Sequence record: PP400780
DNA: 64,000 nucleotides
DNA from: Escherichia phage FL18
Direction: 5' to 3' (one strand)
Notes under the pieces: model-generated
Database searches by the model: none
Told to the model about the DNA's origin: nothing
Seen by the model: the letters and a program-made list of their open reading frames with translations, nothing else
Position numbers and translations under genes: made by a program
Part shown: positions 22,557 through 33,130 of the stretch, piece by piece
How positions within the stretch are numbered: position 1 is the first letter of the stretch
Layout: each line of letters opens with the position of its first letter

Positions 22557-25268
22557 ATGAAAGAATTTTACTTAACGGTTGAACAGATTGGTGATTCAAT
22601 TTTTGAACGTTACATCGATTCTAATGGCCGTGAACGTACTCGTGAAGTAGAATATAAACCATCACTGTTTGCTCATTGTCCAGAAAGTCAGGCTACGAAA
22701 TATTTCGATATCTACGGTAAGCCGTGTACTCGTAAGTTGTTCGCTAATATGCGTGATGCCTCCCAATGGATTAAACGCATGGAAGATATCGGACTTGAAG
22801 CACTTGGCATGGACGATTTCAAATTGGCGTATTTGTCTGACACTTATAACTATGAAATCAAATACGACCATACAAAAATTCGTGTGGCTAACTTCGACAT
22901 CGAAGTAACATCTCCGGATGGGTTCCCTGAGCCATCACAAGCAAAACATCCGATTGATGCTATCACCCATTATGACTCAATTGACGACAGGTTCTACGTA
23001 TTTGATCTATTGAATTCTCCATATGGTAATGTAGAAGAATGGTCTATTGAAATCGCTGCTAAGCTTCAAGAACAAGGCGGTGATGAAGTTCCATCTGAAA
23101 TTATCGATAAAATCATTTATATGCCGTTCGATAACGAAAAAGAATTGTTGATGGAATATCTCAACTTCTGGCAACAGAAAACTCCTGTCATTTTGACTGG
23201 ATGGAACGTTGAGTCATTCGATATTCCATATGTGTATAACCGAATCAAGAATATTTTTGGCGAATCTACTGCGAAACGTTTATCACCGCATCGTAAAACT
23301 CGTGTTAAAGTTATCGAAAACATGTATGGTTCTCGTGAAATCATTACATTGTTCGGTATCTCTGTTCTTGATTACATTGACCTTTACAAAAAATTCTCTT
23401 TTACCAATCAACCGTCGTATTCTCTGGATTACATTTCAGAATTTGAATTGAACGTTGGTAAACTGAAATATGATGGCCCTATTTCTAAGCTTCGTGAAAG
23501 CAATCACCAACGATATATAAGCTATAACATCATCGACGTGTATCGTGTATTGCAAATTGATGCTAAGCGTCAGTTCATCAACTTGAGTTTGGACATGGGT
23601 TATTATGCTAAGATACAGATTCAATCTGTGTTTAGCCCAATTAAAACATGGGATGCTATTATTTTTAATAGCCTTAAAGAGCAGAACAAGGTGATTCCAC
23701 AAGGTCGTTCTCACCCGGTTCAACCTTATCCCGGCGCTTTTGTTAAGGAACCTATTCCAAATCGATACAAATATGTAATGAGTTTCGACCTTACATCTCT
23801 GTATCCAAGTATTATTCGCCAAGTGAATATTAGCCCGGAAACAATAGCAGGAACGTTTAAAGTAGCTCCATTGCATGATTATATTAACGCAATCGCTGAA
23901 CGTCCTTCAGATGTGTACAGTTGCTCTCCTAACGGCATGATGTATTATAAAGACCGTGATGGTGTAGTTCCAACTGAAATCACTAAGGTCTTTAATCAAC
24001 GTAAAGAACATAAAGGTTACATGCTTGCAGCTCAACGTAATGGTGAAATAATTAAAGAGGCATTGCATAATCCTAATCTTTCTGTTGACGAACCATTAGA
24101 TGTTGATTATCGTTTCGACTTCAGCGATGAGATTAAAGAAAAGATTAAAAAGTTGTCTGCTAAATCTCTTAATGAAATGTTGTTTAGAGCTCAACGTACT
24201 GAAGTTGCAGGTATGACTGCACAAATTAACCGTAAATTGCTTATCAACTCGCTTTATGGTGCACTTGGAAACGTTTGGTTCCGTTATTACGATTTGCGTA
24301 ATGCAACTGCAATCACAACATTCGGGCAAATGGCTTTACAGTGGATTGAACGTAAAGTTAATGAATATCTGAATGAAGTTTGTGGTACAGAAGGTGAAGC
24401 TTTCGTTCTATATGGTGATACAGACTCCATTTATGTATCTGCAGATAAAATTATTGATAAGGTTGGTGAATCTAAATTCCGTGATACCAACCATTGGGTA
24501 GACTTCTTAGATAAGTTTGCACGTGAACGTATGGAACCTGCTATTGATAGAGGTTTCCGTGAAATGTGCGAATACATGAACAATAAACAACACTTAATGT
24601 TCATGGACCGAGAAGCTATCGCTGGGCCTCCGCTTGGTTCTAAAGGTATTGGCGGATTTTGGACTGGTAAGAAACGTTATGCATTAAACGTGTGGGATAT
24701 GGAAGGTACTCGTTACGCTGAGCCTAAACTCAAAATCATGGGTCTAGAAACTCAGAAATCTTCGACCCCTAAAGCAGTACAGAAAGCTCTTAAAGAATGT
24801 ATTCGTCGTATGCTTCAAGAAGGTGAAGAATCATTACAAGAATATTTTAAAGAGTTTGAAAAAGAATTCCGTCAATTGAATTATATTAGCATCGCGTCGG
24901 TATCTTCTGCGAATAACATTGCTAAATATGACGTAGGTGGATTCCCTGGTCCTAAATGCCCGTTCCATATTCGTGGAATTCTGACATATAACCGAGCTAT
25001 CAAAGGTAATATCGATGCACCACAAGTTGTAGAAGGTGAAAAAGTATATGTTCTGCCTTTACGTGAAGGAAACCCATTCGGTGATAAATGTATCGCATGG
25101 CCTTCTGGTACTGAAATCACAGATTTAATTAAAGACGATGTACTTCATTGGATGGACTACACTGTTCTCCTTGAGAAGACATTTATTAAACCACTTGAAG
25201 GATTCACATCAGCAGCGAAACTCGATTATGAGAAGAAAGCATCTCTGTTCGATATGTTCGATTTTTGA
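22557..25268 (+). CDS. 43: DNA polymerase gp43 (family B, RB69-type)
   Basis: 903 aa; exonuclease motif FDIEV, polymerase motifs DLTSLYPSII and YGDTDS; N-terminus matches recalled RB69 gp43. Confidence 0.97.
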   Translation: MKEFYLTVEQIGDSIFERYIDSNGRERTREVEYKPSLFAHCPESQATKYFDIYGKPCTRKLFANMRDASQWIKRMEDIGLEALGMDDFKLAYLSDTYNYEIKYDHTKIRVANFDIEVTSPDGFPEPSQAKHPIDAITHYDSIDDRFYVFDLLNSPYGNVEEWSIEIAAKLQEQGGDEVPSEIIDKIIYMPFDNEKELLMEYLNFWQQKTPVILTGWNVESFDIPYVYNRIKNIFGESTAKRLSPHRKTRVKVIENMYGSREIITLFGISVLDYIDLYKKFSFTNQPSYSLDYISEFELNVGKLKYDGPISKLRESNHQRYISYNIIDVYRVLQIDAKRQFINLSLDMGYYAKIQIQSVFSPIKTWDAIIFNSLKEQNKVIPQGRSHPVQPYPGAFVKEPIPNRYKYVMSFDLTSLYPSIIRQVNISPETIAGTFKVAPLHDYINAIAERPSDVYSCSPNGMMYYKDRDGVVPTEITKVFNQRKEHKGYMLAAQRNGEIIKEALHNPNLSVDEPLDVDYRFDFSDEIKEKIKKLSAKSLNEMLFRAQRTEVAGMTAQINRKLLINSLYGALGNVWFRYYDLRNATAITTFGQMALQWIERKVNEYLNEVCGTEGEAFVLYGDTDSIYVSADKIIDKVGESKFRDTNHWVDFLDKFARERMEPAIDRGFREMCEYMNNKQHLMFMDREAIAGPPLGSKGIGGFWTGKKRYALNVWDMEGTRYAEPKLKIMGLETQKSSTPKAVQKALKECIRRMLQEGEESLQEYFKEFEKEFRQLNYISIASVSSANNIAKYDVGGFPGPKCPFHIRGILTYNRAIKGNIDAPQVVEGEKVYVLPLREGNPFGDKCIAWPSGTEITDLIKDDVLHWMDYTVLLEKTFIKPLEGFTSAAKLDYEKKASLFDMFDF

Positions 25269-25308
25269 TATAATGTCATGGACGGTAAACTAATTAAATG
25301 AGAGAAAT

Positions 25309-25944
25309 ATGAAAACTACTCCTATTACTATCGCTATTGACGCAATCATAAAACAAGCTTCTTCTTTGGCCGCTATGGCCAAAGTAATTAGTCAAAACCC
25401 TGCTCGTTATAATGCTATTCTAGAAACTCTTCGACGCCCTGGACTTAGTAATTATGAAAGCCGGGTAATTATTACAGGTGTTGGTAAGAATGCTAATATC
25501 GCAACTAAAGCTTCCGAGACATTTGCTTCACTAGGTATTCCTAGCATGTATTTGAACACTGGGCATTATTCTCACGGTGATGCAGGATTCATTGCGCCTA
25601 ATGATGTGTTGATTCATATTAGTCGTTCTGGTAAGACTGAAGAAATGATAGGTGTTGCTAAACATCTTCGTATGATTCGTCCTCAGGTTAAACAGATTCT
25701 GTTACATTGTAACCCAGACATTCCACAAGAATACGAAGCTCTTTTTGATTATACGTTCTGTACTGGCATCGCGGTAGAGGTTGATGAGAATTCTCTGGCT
25801 CCGACTATGTCCACTACATTGTTGTTAGCGCTTATCGATACGTTTGCTATCAACCTTTCGTCTGAACGTGGATTTACCTCTAATGATTTCCTTAAGTTCC
25901 ATCCAGGCGGTGCACTAGGTGCCATGTTACGAGGCGAACAATGA
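25309..25944 (+). CDS. SIS-domain sugar-phosphate isomerase (arabinose-5-phosphate isomerase KdsD/GutQ-like, no CBS domains)
   Basis: ITGVGKNANIATK ... HGDAGFIAPNDVLIHISRSGKTEE ... APTMSTTLLLALID ... FHPGGALG align with recalled KdsD SIS-domain motifs. Confidence 0.7.
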   Translation: MKTTPITIAIDAIIKQASSLAAMAKVISQNPARYNAILETLRRPGLSNYESRVIITGVGKNANIATKASETFASLGIPSMYLNTGHYSHGDAGFIAPNDVLIHISRSGKTEEMIGVAKHLRMIRPQVKQILLHCNPDIPQEYEALFDYTFCTGIAVEVDENSLAPTMSTTLLLALIDTFAINLSSERGFTSNDFLKFHPGGALGAMLRGEQ

Positions 25945-26084
25945 AAGCAATAACAATAGGACTTTTACTATTGATGCTTGTCATGACTATCTACTGGAGC
26001 TTAACGGCTCCGGTAATGATTCCAACACTTGTAATTGGATGGATTATGATTGGACTACAAGCAAAGTATGAATGCTTTAACTAG
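25941..26084 (+). CDS. small membrane protein (47 aa)
   Basis: manual translation MKAITIGLLLLMLVMTIYWSLTAPVMIPTLVIGWIMIGLQAKYECFN; ATGA overlap with SIS gene stop; below ORF-track cutoff. Confidence 0.4.
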   Translation: MKAITIGLLLLMLVMTIYWSLTAPVMIPTLVIGWIMIGLQAKYECFN

Positions 26085-26097
26085 AATAGTGTACAAT
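26070..26097 (+). promoter_or_regulatory. putative MotA-dependent middle promoter (MotA box AATGCTTTA, -10 TACAAT 12 nt downstream)
   Basis: aatgctttaactagaatagtgtacaat upstream of nucleotidyltransferase-kinase gene. Confidence 0.4.
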
Positions 26098-26125
26098 ACT
26101 CCTACTTACCAATGAGGACTTTAAC

Positions 26126-27811
26126 ATGAAAAAAGCTGTTATTCTTGGTGCTGGACTGGCAACTCGTTTGTATCCAATAACGCATCATATTCCTAAGGTG
26201 CTTGTTAACTATAAACAAGATACTATTCTGAGCAATTTGTATACAATTTATTCTGACCTTGGCGCAGATGAAATTATTGTAGTAGTTCATTCAAAATTTG
26301 CTGAAACTGTTCGAGCTTATTGTGAACAAGAAGGGTTCAATGTGACTATTCGTACAGTTGATGAAGCGTATGGTTCTGCTTATGCTCTTGCTAAATTACA
26401 CAAAGATTTAGACGGCCATAATGTAATTGTTAACTGGTGTGATATTATTCCTGATTTTGGTTCATGGTCTTGGAATGTTAACGCAATCTATGTTAAGGGT
26501 GACGAATGTCGATATAATTTCGACGGTGAAAATATCACTAACGTAGGTTCAACAGGTGGTAATGTTGTAGGAATTTATCAGTTCAAAGACTGGGAATTCT
26601 ATATGGGTTCTACTGATGAGGAAATTCATGAATACTGCAAAGGACGTGATTTCGTAGAATTCCTTTACGGCAGCGCATTCAATAAATCAGAGCTTATGAA
26701 TCTAATTGATTTAGGTGATATGCCTAAACTTGAAAAAGCTCATGAAGTTCGTGAACTTAATCGTAGTTTTAATGCAGTTGAAATTGGTGAAGAAACTGTA
26801 ACTAAATTCGCATTAACCGAACAGGGTCGAGCTCTTCAGAAAGATGAGATTTCGTGGTATCTTAAAGTGAAATCAGATTCAGTTCCTCAGTTAGTTTCTG
26901 TTAATGAAAATAACTTTGAAATGGAACGCATTAAAGGTAAGCCTGCATTTGAATATATTAAATCCAAATCAAGTCTTGCTCGTCCACAAATTGTTGATGC
27001 AATTTTAGATGCACTGAAATTCAGCACAGACACTTATTTTGTAAGTCCTGAAACTGTTCGTCGTGATTTCACTAAAGAATTCTATACGAAAGTTATTGAT
27101 CGTTGTGAAAGCATTCAACCATTGATTGATTCATTTGGTAAAATCACACATGTGAACTACACTAAGATTGGACGTCTGAAGCCAATGCTGAAACAAGCTT
27201 TAGAACACCTCATTCGTTATCATAACCGTTCTCAGGGACAGTACTCTGTTATTCACGGTGACCCGAACTTCAGTAATACTATGATTACTGATAATGGCGA
27301 AGTCAAGTTTATCGACCCTCGTGGATATTTTGGTGAAACCAAGATTTACGGGCCAAAATTGTACGATGAAGCTAAAGTGCTTTATGCTGTTTCAGGTTAT
27401 GATGAATTCAATGCTAATCCGACCTGGGGGCAGTTTACTATTGATGAAACAACTTGTAATGTGACTATTAACATCAATCCATTAGTTTACAAATATAGAA
27501 AGATGAGTTCGTTTAACGAGTATCATCATTTGGCAGTGGCAATTATCTGGATTGCATTAGGCGGTTATTTCAAGAATAATCCACTTAAAGCGGTAGCCGC
27601 ATATTATAAAGGTATGGAACTTCTGACTAAGCAATTACGTAACATGGGCCGTGTACTTCAGGACGGCTCTATTAGTTATGACGTAGCAGAACCTGTAACG
27701 GCTACTCTGATTACAAAAAATCCTGGTAAATGGGTACTAACTGATAAAGAAACTGGTGTTTCCTATCGTCCAATCGGTGGCGATATCACTCATCAATGGG
27801 AACGAATCTAA
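26126..27811 (+). CDS. bifunctional sugar-1-phosphate nucleotidyltransferase / kinase-like fusion protein
   Basis: N-terminus MKKAVILGAGLATRLYPITHHIPKVLV (sugar nucleotidyltransferase G-rich loop); C-terminal region has protein-kinase-like HGDPNFSNTMI (catalytic loop) and FIDPRGYFG (DFG-like) as in APH/choline-kinase-type small-molecule kinases. Confidence 0.65.
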   Translation: MKKAVILGAGLATRLYPITHHIPKVLVNYKQDTILSNLYTIYSDLGADEIIVVVHSKFAETVRAYCEQEGFNVTIRTVDEAYGSAYALAKLHKDLDGHNVIVNWCDIIPDFGSWSWNVNAIYVKGDECRYNFDGENITNVGSTGGNVVGIYQFKDWEFYMGSTDEEIHEYCKGRDFVEFLYGSAFNKSELMNLIDLGDMPKLEKAHEVRELNRSFNAVEIGEETVTKFALTEQGRALQKDEISWYLKVKSDSVPQLVSVNENNFEMERIKGKPAFEYIKSKSSLARPQIVDAILDALKFSTDTYFVSPETVRRDFTKEFYTKVIDRCESIQPLIDSFGKITHVNYTKIGRLKPMLKQALEHLIRYHNRSQGQYSVIHGDPNFSNTMITDNGEVKFIDPRGYFGETKIYGPKLYDEAKVLYAVSGYDEFNANPTWGQFTIDETTCNVTININPLVYKYRKMSSFNEYHHLAVAIIWIALGGYFKNNPLKAVAAYYKGMELLTKQLRNMGRVLQDGSISYDVAEPVTATLITKNPGKWVLTDKETGVSYRPIGGDITHQWERI

Positions 27812-28197
27812 TGCACCGTGTAGAAAACATGCTTAATCTTTGTTTTGATGTCGATGATTGTATAACAGAGTGGAATAACAATCGTGATTACGTGAACTTC
27901 AAACCTGACGTCGAAATGGTGTCTGCCATTAATGCCCTGTATGATGCAGGGCATACCATAACGCTTTACACTGCTCGCGGTATGAAGTCAGTAGGTCCTG
28001 GACGTATAGCAATTGACATTCTCCCAAGTCTGATTCAGAACTTGGAAAACATTGGTTTGAAGTACCATAATTTGCTAACACATAAACCAGTATATGATTG
28101 GATTATCGACGACAAAGCTATGCGTCCTGACGAATTCAAAGCTCTTATGAATAAAGGCGAATTCGAAACATTTAAATCGTATAAACCGAATCTATAA
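27811..28197 (+). CDS. HAD-superfamily phosphatase-like protein (start uncertain: 27796, 27811 or 27829)
   Basis: N-terminal LCFDVDDCIT (motif I-like DxD), TITLYTARG (motif II-like), WIIDDK (motif IV-like). Confidence 0.5.
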   Translation: MHRVENMLNLCFDVDDCITEWNNNRDYVNFKPDVEMVSAINALYDAGHTITLYTARGMKSVGPGRIAIDILPSLIQNLENIGLKYHNLLTHKPVYDWIIDDKAMRPDEFKALMNKGEFETFKSYKPNL

Positions 28198-28253
28198 TAA
28201 TTTAAGTAAGACCTGCAAAAACCATCGCGTCAATTAACGTGAGATGCAAAAAA

Positions 28254-29414
28254 ATGAATACTTTTAAAATTGGAACGAATTTTGATTTAGCTCTTCTTGA
28301 TAAAATCGTAGAGCTCAATAAAACTTATCCTAATAGCTTGATAAACGAAGTATACGGCTCTACAAGAGAAATGGCTTTTGTAGCAGCCAGACCTGATTTT
28401 AGGCTTCCTGACGTTGACAAAAAGATGTTAGAAGATTACGTTAAACGTTGTAACGAATTAGGTATTTGCTTTAACTATACACTCAACACGATAAATCCTG
28501 GTTCAAAAAGAGAACTAGTTGAGTGGAAGAAGAAAGCTATTCAGGATTATGTTCAGTATCTTTGGTCAATAGGTGTATGGCGTATTACTATCGCTAACCC
28601 TGTTGTTATGGAAATTGTTCGTGAAGTCAATAAAGACATTGAGATTGAAGTTTCAACAATTCTACATGTCGATGCTGTAACTCAAATCAAATACTTGCAT
28701 GACCAGTATAATATCAAAAAGGTCTGCTGTGGAATTCATAAGAACCGTTCAGTTTCTTTCCTGAAGCGTGCAGCAGAGTTTTGCAATAAGAACAATATAA
28801 TATTTGAAGTTCTTGTAAATGAGTTCTGTTCTAATGCTGGTAAAGGGTATACAACACATTGTAGCTATCGTGACTCTTGCTATATTTTCCATAGTACTGA
28901 TGTTACAGCTGATGATGCTAAATCCTTAAACGGATATCCTATGCAGCACTGTATTAAAGCTCGTGATACAGACCCATTTAACTGGTTGAGAACTCGTTTT
29001 GTTCGTCCTCAAGATTTGAAACTTTATAATGATATTGGTATCACTCAATTCAAAGTTTCAGGACGTACAGGTAGCACAGACTACATTTTGAAAGTTCTTG
29101 AAGCATACGCTTCTGAAAAGTTTGAAGGTAATTTGTTAGAACTGTGGAAGCCTTTAGAGACTATTTTCACTCTTGAAAACGAAACTGAGTTTTCACATAC
29201 AGTAAATATTGAAACCTCTTTGTTAGATGGCTTTTTAGAAAAAAGGTGGTTCAGACATCCAGATTTCGATTGTGCTAATGAAATCTGCGGGACGACGTGT
29301 ACATATTGTGAAAGATATTATAAACGTCAATTATCTAAAAACGGGTTAGCAGAAAACTCTATATCTATTATTGATATAACTAACTCTGATGACGCTTTGA
29401 GGTACCCGGAATGA
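28254..29414 (+). CDS. Cys-rich protein of unknown function (candidate metallo/Fe-S enzyme)
   Basis: 386 aa from ATG at 28254; Cys clusters CCGIH, FCSNAGKGYTTHCSYRDSC and C-terminal CANEICGTTCTYC (contains CX3CX2C). Confidence 0.5.
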   Translation: MNTFKIGTNFDLALLDKIVELNKTYPNSLINEVYGSTREMAFVAARPDFRLPDVDKKMLEDYVKRCNELGICFNYTLNTINPGSKRELVEWKKKAIQDYVQYLWSIGVWRITIANPVVMEIVREVNKDIEIEVSTILHVDAVTQIKYLHDQYNIKKVCCGIHKNRSVSFLKRAAEFCNKNNIIFEVLVNEFCSNAGKGYTTHCSYRDSCYIFHSTDVTADDAKSLNGYPMQHCIKARDTDPFNWLRTRFVRPQDLKLYNDIGITQFKVSGRTGSTDYILKVLEAYASEKFEGNLLELWKPLETIFTLENETEFSHTVNIETSLLDGFLEKRWFRHPDFDCANEICGTTCTYCERYYKRQLSKNGLAENSISIIDITNSDDALRYPE

Positions 29415-29650
29415 TTTCTAGAAAAACTTTTAATCACCAACTTAATGAAGAGATTTTGACTACGAAACTGAACACTAACGAACAAATTCTTAAAAAGGCC
29501 CTTATGGGCCTGTTTGAAACCAAAGCGGCTAAAGTGATTAAAGGACCTGTTCAATTAGAATATTACGCTGATACATTTCTTCATAGTGTTCTTGGAAGTA
29601 TCGATGCTGAAGCTTTACGTTATATCAACATTGCCAAGAAATTCAAATAA
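29411..29650 (+). CDS. hypothetical protein (79 aa)
   Basis: ATGA-overlapping ORF at end of sugar cassette. Confidence 0.45.
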   Translation: MISRKTFNHQLNEEILTTKLNTNEQILKKALMGLFETKAAKVIKGPVQLEYYADTFLHSVLGSIDAEALRYINIAKKFK

Positions 29651-29692
29651 GCTTTACGAATTGAGTATATAATAAATTGTATTGAGGTAAAC

Positions 29693-30409
29693 ATGGGGAA
29701 ACATAACACAATGAAATATATCAAAGCCGCAGATTTTCAAACCGCATTTAAAGCAGTCAATCGTGAAATTTTAGAAAACCCGGAATTCGTAACTGATTCT
29801 CGTATTGGACGTTGTAATGAAATTGGGTCTATGACAGTAGTTGTTGACACTCCATCATCATTCAAAATGACTGACCCACGTATTAACCGCATCTCTTATG
29901 AATATGCCGAAGACTTCTGGAAGTTTATGATTTCTGGTGGTACCAACGCAGAAGAAGCGTTTAAGGCATATCCTAATGTCGCTAAATTTATTTCTAAACC
30001 AAAATCAGATGTTTTGCCGGCGAACTTCAATACTTTCTATGGTCCTCGCATTGCGGCCCAATTACCAGCTCTTCTAAAAGAACTTAAAGAGAAGCCTAAC
30101 TCTCGAAGAGTTGTGTTCCAAATTCTAGAAAGTTCTGATCAGGCTTTGCTTGATTCGGATGAAACGCTTGAATATCCATGTACTGACTCAGTGACTTATT
30201 ATATTCGTGATGGTAAGCTTTATACCCACTGTCATATGCGTTCTCAGAACTGTGCTGTTGTTATGCAGTTGGATTTTTATCTCCAAGGAAAATTACTTCA
30301 TTATATCGCTAACGAATGCGGTGTAGAAGTTGGTGATTATACTCATACCATGGTAAGTGCCCATGTGTTTGAACGTGATTTTGATTATGTTAAAGGATTC
30401 CTTGACTAA
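29693..30409 (+). CDS. 42: deoxynucleotide hydroxymethylase, thymidylate-synthase family (T4 gp42 dCMP hydroxymethylase-like)
   Basis: YPCTDSVTYYIRDGKLYTHCHMRSQNCAVVMQLDFY matches the TS/dCH catalytic core (PC nucleophile, MRS motif); synteny downstream of 43. Confidence 0.75.
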   Translation: MGKHNTMKYIKAADFQTAFKAVNREILENPEFVTDSRIGRCNEIGSMTVVVDTPSSFKMTDPRINRISYEYAEDFWKFMISGGTNAEEAFKAYPNVAKFISKPKSDVLPANFNTFYGPRIAAQLPALLKELKEKPNSRRVVFQILESSDQALLDSDETLEYPCTDSVTYYIRDGKLYTHCHMRSQNCAVVMQLDFYLQGKLLHYIANECGVEVGDYTHTMVSAHVFERDFDYVKGFLD

Positions 30410-31308
30410 TGGCTATTTTCCGCGTACCAATCTTGAGTATGCGGTCTTATGAAACTGGACAGTATGCTATCCTTAAGGATGGCAACTTCCAACTTCATTT
30501 GCACCGTGCTAATCCGGGTGATGTGATTACATATCCACGTAATGCATCTGATATTAAAGAATGCGAACGTCTTTTCCCAGAATTTAAGTTTGTTCCATTA
30601 TGGTATAAAGATAACGCTTATAACACTCGTAAATATTTCTGGTCTGAAAATGAATTTGTGGTTGATTCATTAATTGCTTATTATGATTGCGATTTTCTAA
30701 TCACAGATATAACTGGATATGACGGCGCTTTTGATGTAGAATTCAATTTCAATATCACTGCAGACCCTAATAAACCACGTTTTTATATTGACGAATTCTT
30801 AAAAACCGACATGTTGTCGGTTAATCGTTCAATCCAAACAACTGTGTTGAATGAACGTCAAAAAGAAGTGCTGGTTAACGCAGGTGCAGATGGTAATAAG
30901 ATTATCGTAACGCAGAAAGTTATACGTCCTTCCATCATGCAGCGTCTTGTAGGTGATTTGGCTCCTATTTATCTAGATGGTATTTTTCATCCATTTCGAA
31001 TTAGTGACCCGTGCTATCGTTTTGAACAAGTGGTTGAATGTGCAATTCAATTAGGTCAACCGCTTTATATAACCGATCCAAATAATAGCTTTGACAGAAA
31101 TAAGTATCCTGAAGAAGCGTTGATTCGAATTTTTAAACCAACTAAAACTGAGTACTATCAAATTCTTAAAGGACGTCCGAAGATTCAATATTTCGAAAAT
31201 CCTGAAGAGGTATTTCATCCAGGTCTTGGTGAGTTCATCTACTTTAATGCTTTAATTTCTTCACCGTATAATATACCTAAATATGAAGATGTCGTAATCG
31301 AGGAATAA
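30409..31308 (+). CDS. hypothetical protein occupying the T4 beta-glucosyltransferase locus (candidate DNA sugar transferase)
   Basis: 299 aa ORF between gene 42 and uvsX; no similarity to recalled T4 beta-GT. Confidence 0.45.
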   Translation: MAIFRVPILSMRSYETGQYAILKDGNFQLHLHRANPGDVITYPRNASDIKECERLFPEFKFVPLWYKDNAYNTRKYFWSENEFVVDSLIAYYDCDFLITDITGYDGAFDVEFNFNITADPNKPRFYIDEFLKTDMLSVNRSIQTTVLNERQKEVLVNAGADGNKIIVTQKVIRPSIMQRLVGDLAPIYLDGIFHPFRISDPCYRFEQVVECAIQLGQPLYITDPNNSFDRNKYPEEALIRIFKPTKTEYYQILKGRPKIQYFENPEEVFHPGLGEFIYFNALISSPYNIPKYEDVVIEE

Positions 31309-31309
31309 A

Positions 31310-31858
31310 ATGGCTAAAATTATTTTAGTAGATGGCCCGGATAATGCTGGTAAAACAACTTTCATTAATGACATAATGGAAATTAGTGAAAGATATGTAA
31401 AAATTGATTTCCCTAAACGAACAGTTGATGGACGTTTCGATGTTAAGTCTCGAAATGAAGTTGGCTGTTTTGAAACGATGTTGAATTATTTAGACCCTAC
31501 TAAGATTTATCTGTTAGACCGTGGATATATTAGTAACTGGGTTTACGGACGTATTCGACAAGATGCGGACTCGGTTCTTGACGTTTATGAACAGGATTAT
31601 ATTCGTCTTTGCCAAAACCATGATGTGTTCACAATTATTTTAACACGTAACGAAATGACTGAAAGTTTTGAAGACGACCTTATTACTTTGTCTTCATTCG
31701 GTTTTAATACAGTCATTTCACATTTTGAAGAGTTTGCAATTCATAACAAAATCCAAACGTATCAATTACTTAATCATGATGGTGCTAACAAAGTTATAGG
31801 ATTTAATGCAAGCGAACGTAATGGTTTGATTACAGAAATCATCAAATGGGCTCGTTAA
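31310..31858 (+). CDS. P-loop nucleoside/nucleotide kinase-like protein
   Basis: Walker A GPDNAGKTT near N-terminus; LLDRGYISNWVYG resembles the DR(Y) motif of TMK/dNK-type kinases. Confidence 0.5.
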   Translation: MAKIILVDGPDNAGKTTFINDIMEISERYVKIDFPKRTVDGRFDVKSRNEVGCFETMLNYLDPTKIYLLDRGYISNWVYGRIRQDADSVLDVYEQDYIRLCQNHDVFTIILTRNEMTESFEDDLITLSSFGFNTVISHFEEFAIHNKIQTYQLLNHDGANKVIGFNASERNGLITEIIKWAR

Positions 31859-31957
31859 GAGCCATTTAAAGTTTTAAATGCTGTATAACCCTTAGTATAT
31901 AATCATCTTATCTTTTAAACATGAGTAAAATATAATGATGCCTATGGAAAAAATACA

Positions 31958-33130
31958 ATGTCTGATTTAAAATCTCGTCTGATTAAAGCTTCTACTTCTA
32001 AAATGACTGCAGACTTGACTAAGTCTAAGCTGTTTAATAATCGTGATGAAGTCCCTACTCGTATTCCGATGTTGAATATTGCACTAGGTGGTGCTCTGAA
32101 TGCAGGATTGCAATCAGGCTTGACTATTTTTGCTGCACCTTCTAAACACTTTAAAACGTTGTTTGGACTGACCATGGTTGCAGCATATATGAAGAAATAT
32201 AAAGATGCAATCTGTTTGTTTTATGACTCAGAATTCGGTGCTTCAGAATCTTATTTTCGTTCAATGGGTGTTGATTTAGACCGTGTAGTTCATACACCAA
32301 TTCAGTCAGTCGAACAACTTAAAGTTGATATGACTAATCAGCTTGACGCTATTGAACGCGGTGATAAAGTTATTATCTTTATCGATTCAATCGGTAATAC
32401 TGCATCTAAGAAAGAAACCGAAGATGCATTGAACGAGAAAGTTGTAGGTGATATGTCTCGTGCTAAGGCACTTAAATCTCTTTTCCGTATTGTGACTCCT
32501 TATCTGACTATTAAAGATATTCCATGTGTTGCAATCAACCATACCGCAATGGAAATTGGTGGATTGTACCCTAAAGAGATTATGGGCGGCGGTACAGGTA
32601 TTCTTTACTCGGCTAACACTGTATTCTTTATCTCTAAACGTCAGGTTAAGGATGGCACTGAATTGACCGGTTATGACTTCACGTTGAAAGCAGAAAAATC
32701 TCGTACAGTTAAAGAGAAATCTACTTTCCCAATCACAGTTAATTTTGATGGTGGTATCGACCCATTCAGTGGCTTGTTAGAAATGGCAACTGAAATCGGT
32801 TTTGTAGTTAAGCCTAAAGCTGGTTGGTATGCTCGTGAATTCCTTGACGAAGAAACAGGTGAAATGATTCGTGAAGAGAAATCATGGCGTGCTAAAGCTA
32901 CTGATTGTGTAGAATTCTGGGGTCCTTTGTTTAAACACAAACCTTTCCGAGATGCAATTGAAACTAAATATAAACTAGGTGCTATCTCTTCTATTAAAGA
33001 AGTTGATGACGCTGTTAATGACCTTATTAATTGCAAAGCAACAACTAAAGTTCCGGTTAAAACTTCTGATGCTCCGTCTGCAGCAGATATAGAAAACGAC
33101 CTTGACGAAATGGAAGATTTCGATGAATAA
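31958..33130 (+). CDS. uvsX: recombinase UvsX (RecA/Rad51 family)
   Basis: 390 aa; MSDLKSRLIKASTSK ... near-identical to recalled T4 UvsX. Confidence 0.95.
   Translation: MSDLKSRLIKASTSKMTADLTKSKLFNNRDEVPTRIPMLNIALGGALNAGLQSGLTIFAAPSKHFKTLFGLTMVAAYMKKYKDAICLFYDSEFGASESYFRSMGVDLDRVVHTPIQSVEQLKVDMTNQLDAIERGDKVIIFIDSIGNTASKKETEDALNEKVVGDMSRAKALKSLFRIVTPYLTIKDIPCVAINHTAMEIGGLYPKEIMGGGTGILYSANTVFFISKRQVKDGTELTGYDFTLKAEKSRTVKEKSTFPITVNFDGGIDPFSGLLEMATEIGFVVKPKAGWYAREFLDEETGEMIREEKSWRAKATDCVEFWGPLFKHKPFRDAIETKYKLGAISSIKEVDDAVNDLINCKATTKVPVKTSDAPSAADIENDLDEMEDFDE

Follow-up and report, generated by a model that had tools for sequence, protein, structure and literature searches.

A U32-family protein in the DNA-modification cluster of RB69-like phages: a candidate oxygen-independent, prephenate-dependent cytosine nucleotide hydroxylase

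The DNA analysed here is a stretch of 64,000 nucleotides (the window) from Escherichia phage FL18 (sequence record PP400780). Nucleotide matches and the taxonomy of the matching records identify it as DNA of a T4-like coliphage from the RB69 group (genus Mosigvirus); over positions 26000–31400 its identity is 99.4% with phage JM17 and about 98% with over 150 further records. The DNA-modification cluster of the window comprises, in order, genes for a SIS isomerase, a kinase/nucleotidyltransferase, a HAD phosphatase, a U32-family protein, the product of a 79-residue open reading frame (ORF), a ThyA homologue, a glycosyltransferase and a nucleotide kinase (Table 1). The gene in question is that of the U32-family protein, whose product of 386 residues is 99.5% identical to its orthologue RB69 gp50 and is called gp50 below. 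The original prediction, made from the letters alone, had described a cysteine-rich protein of no recognised family inside a sugar cassette. The ORF is real, as the reading frame, public annotations and the PHROG profile agree, and the gene order confirms its location within the sugar cassette. The mechanical ORF starts at a GTG at 28239; the ATG at 28254 is preferred, because the public annotations of near-identical phages use this codon and the PHROG profile spans residues 1–386, and the stop codon ends at 29414. The reading favoured here is that gp50 acts as an O2-independent, prephenate-dependent hydroxylase at C5 of deoxycytidine monophosphate (dCMP), bypassing the ThyA homologue (gp48) under anoxia; we place somewhat more belief than doubt in this assignment.

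Membership of the U32 family is evident from profile searches. The Pfam model Peptidase_U32 (PF01136) matches residues 94–286 with 42.2 bits (cut-off 22.4), the match to phrog_5757 spans the whole protein (E 5e-267), and PF01136 is also above threshold in the orthologue from Enterobacter phage Entb_45 and in nearly all of the 120 listed homologues; a family can therefore be recognised where none had been. The same follows from structure prediction and fold comparison, a check proposed with the original prediction: the predicted fold is a TIM barrel, as in the solved U32 structure, and structure comparison alone recovered that entry (PDB 5D88, Mk0906), while a sequence search of the PDB chains returned no match at E ≤ 1. 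Pairwise identity with the four E. coli U32 paralogues is 16–21% (TrhP, 19%). The NCBIfam UbiU model gives 18.5 bits against a cut-off of 440, so that the UbiU/UbiV equivalog test failed, and the protein does not fit the RlhA subfamily, since DUF3656 is missing, PF01136 is the sole Pfam match and the length is 386 residues against 653. The low identity, together with the low scores of the UbiU model and of the clade hidden Markov model (HMM), indicates a separate subfamily. On sequence grounds, the phage protein is thus assigned as a divergent member of the U32 iron–sulfur (Fe-S) family that forms its own subfamily. Most database entries follow the family name and label it 'peptidase' or 'collagenase-like protease'. 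A collagenase-like peptidase is nevertheless barely credible, as no catalytic mechanism is known for the collagenolysis reported in some members (PMC5727448), the E. coli members studied by genetics are needed for hydroxylation, and the gene is embedded among nucleotide and DNA modification functions.

The protein contains 13 cysteines, and the three clusters quoted in the original prediction are all present, namely VCCGIH (C158/C159), FCSNAGKGYTTHCSYRDSC (C192, C203, C209) and CANEICGTTCTYC (C340, C345, C349, C352), the last of which includes the C-terminal CX3CX2C motif. In a 110-sequence alignment with homologues down to 47% identity and a mean column identity of 48%, C158, C192, C203, C209, C233, C340, C345, C349 and C352 are invariant in every sequence, and C177 is kept in 107; it is this invariance that leads us to judge the clusters non-chance. 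C192 and C209 align with C169 and C176 of RlhA (corresponding to UbiU C169/C176 and TrhP C170/C177), and E185 aligns with RlhA E161. Mutagenesis of RlhA found C169, C176, C580 and C611 essential and E161 important (PMC5727448). Nothing in the phage protein aligns with the third and fourth core cysteines of the E. coli paralogues; the phage clade has C203 and C233 instead. The C-terminal four-cysteine cluster is absent from UbiU, UbiV and TrhP; MAFFT sets it on the C-terminal cysteines of RlhA across long gaps, and owing to these gaps the alignment is not treated as homology. The two four-cysteine sets suggest two metal or Fe-S sites. Fe-S binding is plausible from the 4Fe-4S clusters bound by the U32 family and from the nine invariant cysteines, and this part of the earlier biochemical interpretation is retained. 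A radical-type reading of CX3CX2C is rejected: no Radical_SAM Pfam match was found at E ≤ 1, the motif lies within an invariant four-cysteine set of a protein with the U32 fold, and four cysteine ligands would leave no open iron for a site of the radical S-adenosylmethionine (SAM) type.

The chemistry of RB69 DNA has recently been revised to mono- and poly-arabinosylated 5-hydroxycytosine (5hoC), and not arabosyl-hydroxymethylcytosine, with modification reported on cytidine only (PMC13326640, 2026). According to the same paper, gp48 makes 5-hydroxy-dCMP with a bound flavin, and 18O2 labelling traces the hydroxyl oxygen to O2; He et al. are cited for an in vitro reconstitution. The paper also lists a phage dCTPase and shows that 5hoC synthesis takes place on the mononucleotide, with subsequent phosphorylation by the phage deoxynucleoside monophosphate kinase (PMC13326640). 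Because the oxygen inserted by gp48 comes from O2, a different route would be needed under anoxia, and because of the dCTPase and the mononucleotide-level synthesis this route must enter the nucleotide pool. The only mention of gp50 in that paper is in Table 1, under the label 'Sugar or heterocycle reductase' and with 5D88 given as the match; none of the words chorismate, prephenate, TrhP or RlhA appears in its text (PMC13326640).

This chemistry also bears on the proposal, contained in the original prediction, that the protein performs a sugar-tailoring step (an epimerisation, an oxidation or a radical reaction). A reductase would be a further variant of this reading, and the target would be a nucleoside diphosphate (NDP)-pentose or a DNA-bound sugar. 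Such a role would suit a gene within a sugar cassette and a TIM-barrel fold, which is frequent among sugar enzymes, and the Shewanella phage Thanatos, which has the U32 gene, was reported with a 'deoxypentose'. In RB69, however, plain arabinose sits directly on 5hoC; Acinetobacter phage DLP3 carries arabinosyl- and tri-arabinosyl-5hoC with a cluster listed without a U32 gene; and the proposed route from ribulose-5-phosphate to NDP-arabinofuranose employs three enzymes (SIS, kinase/pyrophosphorylase and HAD) with no U32 step (PMC13326640). Furthermore, no sugar-enzyme family was matched, the partners of the gene are chorismate mutase (see below) and nucleotide-level enzymes, and the mutase would be left unexplained. 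A sugar-tailoring role is consequently quite improbable, and the gene context points to base hydroxylation rather than sugar modification.

The U32 proteins characterised so far contain Fe-S clusters and are necessary for hydroxylations that depend on prephenate and proceed without O2 (PMC5727448, PMC10990095). RlhA is needed for ho5C2501 of 23S rRNA and TrhP for ho5U34 of tRNA (PMC5727448, PMC10990095), whereas UbiU/V is needed for three hydroxylations of ubiquinone biosynthesis, where prephenate is the proven oxygen donor (PMC10990095). For gp50 we infer an Fe-S content, the use of prephenate, dCMP as substrate and an anaerobic role.

Among related phages, the U32 gene is linked to a gene for the synthesis of prephenate. 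In Entb_45 (Kanagawavirus), a 79-residue ORF starting inside the U32 stop codon is an AroQ chorismate mutase: it scores 40.9 bits with Pfam CM_2 (cut-off 27) and has many NCBIfam chorismate mutase matches. Homologues occur in 51 phage records, and all listed matches lie at or next to a ThyA homologue or a U32 gene; the hosts are Klebsiella, Serratia, Yersinia, Enterobacter, Edwardsiella, Erwinia, Pectobacterium, Providencia, Morganella, Kosakonia and Shewanella, in addition to coliphage EcS1, and Proteus phages have more diverged versions. Residues R11, R28, K39, S84 and Q88 of the E. coli PheA mutase domain (EcCM), which we take to be its active-site residues, are invariant in the phage mutases; R51 is not conserved in the T4-like versions, which are also about 10 residues shorter between helices. 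Shewanella phage Thanatos-1 has a rearranged cluster in which U32 and mutase have moved together, adjacent to each other and with overlapping stop and start codons. The mutase family, phrog_10027, is of 'unknown function' in PHROGs and hypothetical in most GenBank records. Genes for mini AroQ mutases directly after U32 are found at L002:7158-7397, in L012–L025 and at L085:4384-4728 and L086:5983-6240 (L numbers denote the loci examined). The EcS1 and Serratia CHI14-type mutase has 114 residues, and its N-terminus (MRRINH.MNE) resembles that of the gp49 family.

A comparable linkage is observed in viral contigs that are not T4-like. In 7 of these loci a DAHP-synthase homologue adjoins U32, and in five of the 7 it is fused to CM_2, with Pfam scores of 88.7 and 71.8 bits for DAHP-synthase::chorismate-mutase fusions. 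The fusions lie at L036:8411-9433, L039:7302-8357, L040:8332-9387, L050:11079-12197 and L038:9-971, some of them on contigs longer than 190 kb; L006 and L024 carry a DAHP-synthase-like gene without a mutase domain. The DAHP-synthase and mutase genes beside U32 look like an auxiliary shikimate-pathway module in viruses. Judged from the sequences, the association of chorismate mutase with U32 would have arisen independently in T4-like and non-T4 viruses. The gene linkage, like the family membership, fold and cysteine conservation given above, is directly established.

The phyletic distribution was likewise observed directly. By tblastn, U32 occurs in 221 phage records, whose named-genus hosts are all Enterobacterales or Shewanella, that is, facultative anaerobes. 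For the gp48-type gene the number of records is 373, and among them are 57 Acinetobacter phages, 20 Rhizobium phages, Agrobacterium phages and one Pseudomonas phage. In Acinetobacter phage Konradin and Pseudomonas phage PspYZU05 the cluster is syntenic, the gene in the HAD slot directly adjoins the ThyA gene, and the U32 block, with its optional gp49 and mutase genes, is missing precisely. Between genera, U32 is 82–89% identical and gp48 74–84%, the sugar enzymes being far less conserved. The cluster of E. coli phage Bp7 (L060:6097-7699) holds a gp48-type hydroxylase and a sugar module, with no U32, gp49 or chorismate mutase.

Approximately 250 metagenomic proteins share 45–58% identity with the phage protein. 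The non-T4 set consists of 35 U32 loci, 32 of them viral loci from IMG/VR and three on contigs reached by protein look-ups (one contig appears to be bacterial); several lie on contigs of 200–466 kb. Their commonest neighbours are a gp46/47-like glycosyltransferase (24/35), a gp52/53-like kinase/nucleotidyltransferase (17/35) and a SIS isomerase (10/35), along with a thymidylate-kinase-like protein and a dCMP deaminase. No gp48-type gene was found within 10 kb of U32 in any of the 35; the one ThyA located within that distance is canonical (E 9e-42 to E. coli ThyA vs 6e-6 to gp48). A reciprocal scan for gp48-type genes gave 46 viral loci, with both genes present only in enteric T4-likes. Environmental contigs with gp48-type genes (45–59% identity, GC content 0.30–0.57) mostly carry glycosyltransferase and kinase genes and no U32, and a ThyA-like scan of the same collection returned none of the non-T4 U32 contigs. 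In reference genomes, close genome-encoded relatives (44–52% identity) are confined to anaerobic lineages, which include Erysipelotrichales, Oscillospiraceae, Lachnospiraceae, Romboutsia, Gastranaerophilaceae, Tannerella and Phocaeicola faecalis. A family of about 200 residues with no Pfam or PHROG match adjoins U32 in 16 non-T4 viral loci (e.g. L048:16570-17172 and L049:9280-9942); as it occupies the position of the HAD phosphatase in T4-like clusters, it may be a non-homologous replacement.

Three states can be distinguished from these sequence data: the ThyA-type gene only, in phages of aerobes; both genes, in phages of facultative anaerobes; and U32 only, in contigs with their closest genome-encoded relatives in anaerobes. 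This pattern mirrors UbiI/H/F vs UbiU/V and TrhO vs TrhP and bears the signature of non-orthologous displacement inside a shared module. It also bears on the possibility that gp50 is a redox partner of gp48, whose Fe-S electrons reduce the loosely bound flavin and so aid the O2 route. The two genes are close together, gp48 requires reduced flavin, and the published label 'sugar or heterocycle reductase' (PMC13326640) would suit such a function. Yet 34 of the 35 non-T4 loci combine U32 and the sugar module with no gp48-type gene, the gp48-type genes of Acinetobacter and Rhizobium phages function without U32, and a reductase role leaves the chorismate mutase linkage unexplained, all of which makes a redox partner improbable.

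If gp50 is a dCMP hydroxylase, it would convert dCMP into 5-hydroxy-dCMP, the product that gp48 forms in air. By analogy with the scheme put forward for UbiU/V, the core four-cysteine site, probably with the C340–C352 site, would take two electrons from the pyrimidine, while prephenate would decarboxylate to phenylpyruvate and its hydroxide would go to C5. RB69-like phages would draw prephenate from host PheA/TyrA, and most other genera would bring their own chorismate mutase. The host enzymes for prephenate are subject to feedback inhibition and to repression by aromatic amino acids in rich media, and a phage-borne mutase would fit such control. In an anoxic gut host, gp50 would then sustain the supply of the 5-hydroxycytosine nucleotide that replaces cytosine, and the arabosyltransferase would decorate it. 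In a broader form, the proposal is that phages hold a self-contained system for O2-independent hydroxylation of free pyrimidine deoxynucleotides, made of U32 and its own prephenate supply (mutase or DAHP-synthase/mutase fusion) and accompanied by the three-state split among hosts; we regard this as a fair conjecture that falls a little short of an even chance.

The gene and its U32 annotation were already known. No accessible paper was found to contain the functional reading, the linkage to the mutase or the three-state distribution, or to connect these phages with chorismate mutase or U32; a preprint that describes transposon mutagenesis of LC53 and Bas46 holds no information on the U32 gene, and the Thanatos paper models TH1_065 with no comment on it.

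The identity of the substrate is the point at which another U32 hydroxylase function has to be weighed. A prephenate-dependent enzyme of this family could act on cytosine in DNA after replication, on dCTP or dCDP, on dUMP (giving 5-hydroxy-dUMP), or on host tRNA or rRNA. All characterised nucleic-acid U32 enzymes work on polynucleotides, and in several non-T4 loci a dCMP deaminase adjoins U32, where it would be consistent with uracil as the substrate. Against these options, the U32 core is the sole Pfam match, while RlhA has DUF3656; the dCTPase and the mononucleotide-level synthesis of 5hoC favour the nucleotide pool (PMC13326640); nucleotide kinases are constant neighbours, accompanying U32 in all contexts examined; and only cytidine is reported modified in RB69 DNA. 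A different substrate is therefore considered unlikely, though it is a serious alternative to dCMP.

Several observations weigh against gp50 as an anaerobic dCMP hydroxylase. U32 hydroxylation has never been reconstituted in vitro for any family member (PMC10990095), and the known substrates are RNA and a prenylated phenol, none of them a free nucleotide. The clade HMM is weak on the E. coli paralogues (TrhP 15.3, RlhA 9.5, UbiU 6.1 and UbiV -1.4 bits), and the core spacing is C192-x10-C203-x5-C209-x23-C233 vs C-x6-C-x15-C-x3-C in RlhA and TrhP. The phage of the window has no chorismate mutase of its own by Pfam, BLASTP and hhalign. In E. coli Dhakavirus phages, Bp7 among them, the gp48-type gene is present and the U32 block absent, so that U32 would be dispensable in some coliphages or enteric hosts. 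Moreover, the host correlation is supported by a handful of independent lineages, and the absence of gp48-type genes from the non-T4 contigs covers the 10 kb flanks and a pattern-limited scan.

The 79-residue ORF downstream of U32 in the window fills the slot held by chorismate mutase in most other genera. As a diverged chorismate mutase it was rejected, since BLASTP gave no match, no Pfam or NCBIfam model matched and the hhalign probability was 0.15%. It has no cysteine, and its single-sequence AlphaFold2 model is a two-helix hairpin, too simple for a fold search; Y51, D54, F56, H58, S59, G62, E67, R70, N73 and K76 are invariant in five homologues. A homologue lies between U32 and mutase in the Yersinia and Pectobacterium loci examined and in one uncultured T4-like locus, and a weak homologue in Serratia phage 92A1 adjoins the mutase. 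Its product might be a U32 accessory factor.

Table 1. Genes of the modification cluster and cysteine regions of gp50, with positions in the window
Feature	Position	Strand	Length or basis
SIS-domain arabinose-5-phosphate isomerase, gp55 orthologue	25309..25944	+	Pfam SIS; annotation; PMC13326640
Bifunctional sugar kinase / UDP-arabinose pyrophosphorylase, gp52:53, AfhE-like	26126..27811	+	Pfam NTP_transferase and weak kinase-family matches; PMC13326640
HAD-like phosphatase, gp51, AfhF-like	27796..28197	+	phrog_1238; PMC13326640
U32-family protein, RB69 gp50 orthologue; proposed O2-independent, prephenate-dependent cytosine C5 hydroxylase	28254..29414	+	386 aa
Core U32 cysteine region C192, C203, C209, C233; candidate 4Fe-4S site	28827..28952	+	110/110 invariant; RlhA alignment
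C-terminal C340-x4-C345-x3-C349-x2-C352; candidate second metal or Fe-S site	29271..29309	+	110/110 invariant
79-aa ORF, RB69 ORF049c	29411..29650	+	phrog_8601; start overlaps U32 stop codon
ThyA homologue, RB69 gp48 orthologue, flavin- and O2-dependent 5-hydroxy-dCMP synthase	29693..30409	+	Pfam Thymidylat_synt; function shown for RB69 gp48 (PMC13326640)
DNA arabinosyltransferase, gp46:47 orthologue	30409..31308	+	phrog_3891; PMC13326640 Table 1
Thymidylate-kinase-like nucleotide kinase, gp45 orthologue	31310..31858	+	phrog_761; PMC13326640 Table 1

Regarding the remainder of the cluster, proteins 100% identical to the ThyA homologue of the window occur in Mosigvirus phages. The kinase/nucleotidyltransferase (561 residues) and the glycosyltransferase (299 residues) are single intact ORFs in the window; the RB69 reference record divides both, into 052c/053c and 046/047, respectively, which the literature attributes to sequencing errors. 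In JM17, the closest record, the region that corresponds to positions 26000–31400 (PP400779.1, 46399-52500) is about 700 bp longer, and a GIY-YIG homing endonuclease is annotated within it; in Erwinia phage Virsaitis27 a Seg-like homing endonuclease lies between the HAD and U32 genes (L085:2578-3216). The modification cluster appears to be a hotspot of homing-endonuclease insertion. A promoter and terminator scan of positions 25000–32200 gave 22 sites against 28.5 expected from shuffled sequence, hence no excess, and T4 late-promoter boxes are not enriched; no operon is claimed for the cluster. A tRNA scan of the whole window found no tRNA genes.

Outside viruses, U32 ends a conserved operon in Phocaeicola faecalis, in Tannerella and on a Clostridia-like contig (L072:3044-7137, L069:5186-9080 and L004:7135-11098), where it follows GP88 (PF17338), a fusion of a guanylate-kinase-like domain with a SAM-methyltransferase, and a protein of 265 residues. 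L004 additionally carries NT5C, a PnuC-like transporter, a deoxynucleoside kinase, a radical SAM/SPASM protein, a second U32 and a nucleoside 2-deoxyribosyltransferase. This GP88/methyltransferase/U32 operon may represent a cellular pathway to a hydroxylated and then methylated nucleotide, and its kinase-methyltransferase and U32 may make methoxylated nucleotides.

Should gp50 prove to be an anaerobic dCMP hydroxylase, it would explain how phages with arabosyl-5-hydroxycytosine in place of all C replicate in the anoxic gut despite an O2-requiring hydroxylase, and a strongly conserved gene left unexplained by the 2026 pathway paper would gain a function. A single-chain enzyme of 386 residues acting on dCMP would be a much easier U32 system to handle than those whose substrate is a ribosome intermediate, tRNA or a prenylated quinone precursor, and would offer the first small soluble substrate for the in vitro reconstitution of U32 chemistry. 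New DNA hypermodifications are predicted in viruses of anaerobes, and under the broader form of the proposal a large unseen class of glycosylated 5-hydroxypyrimidine DNA would be expected in anaerobic viromes. In phage therapy, oxygen and the status of the host aromatic pathway would affect the fitness of these phages. The Dhakavirus phages would constitute a natural control for the anaerobic-bypass hypothesis.

The known systems resemble the phage protein in different respects. The solved structure Mk0906 (PDB 5D88) has 247 residues and is 11–14% identical to it in structural alignments. RlhA (YdcP) shares the U32 core, its C169, C176 and E161 being conserved in the phage protein, and has extra essential C-terminal cysteines; its product base, 5-hydroxycytosine, is the base of RB69 DNA, and its activity requires prephenate and Fe-S but not O2. 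In contrast to the phage protein, RlhA has 653 residues, DUF3656 and another cysteine spacing, and it acts on a ribosome assembly intermediate, whereas the phage substrate is proposed to be a free deoxynucleotide. TrhP (YegQ) and TrhO parallel U32 and gp48 in that the same modification is made by a prephenate-dependent U32 protein or by an O2-dependent enzyme (PMC6599085). TrhP is the top-scoring E. coli paralogue (15.3 bits), but it acts on a tRNA uridine and is devoid of the C-terminal four-cysteine cluster. In the UbiU-UbiV pair, U32 Fe-S proteins stand in for the flavin monooxygenases UbiI/H/F under anoxia, mirroring the relationship proposed between gp50 and gp48 (PMC10990095); unlike gp50, this system comprises two proteins, a lipid substrate and the accessory factor UbiT encoded alongside. 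Finally, RB69 gp48 and DLP3 gp80 make the very product proposed for gp50, and RB69 gp48 is encoded in the same cluster, although with an unrelated fold and cofactor and a requirement for O2.

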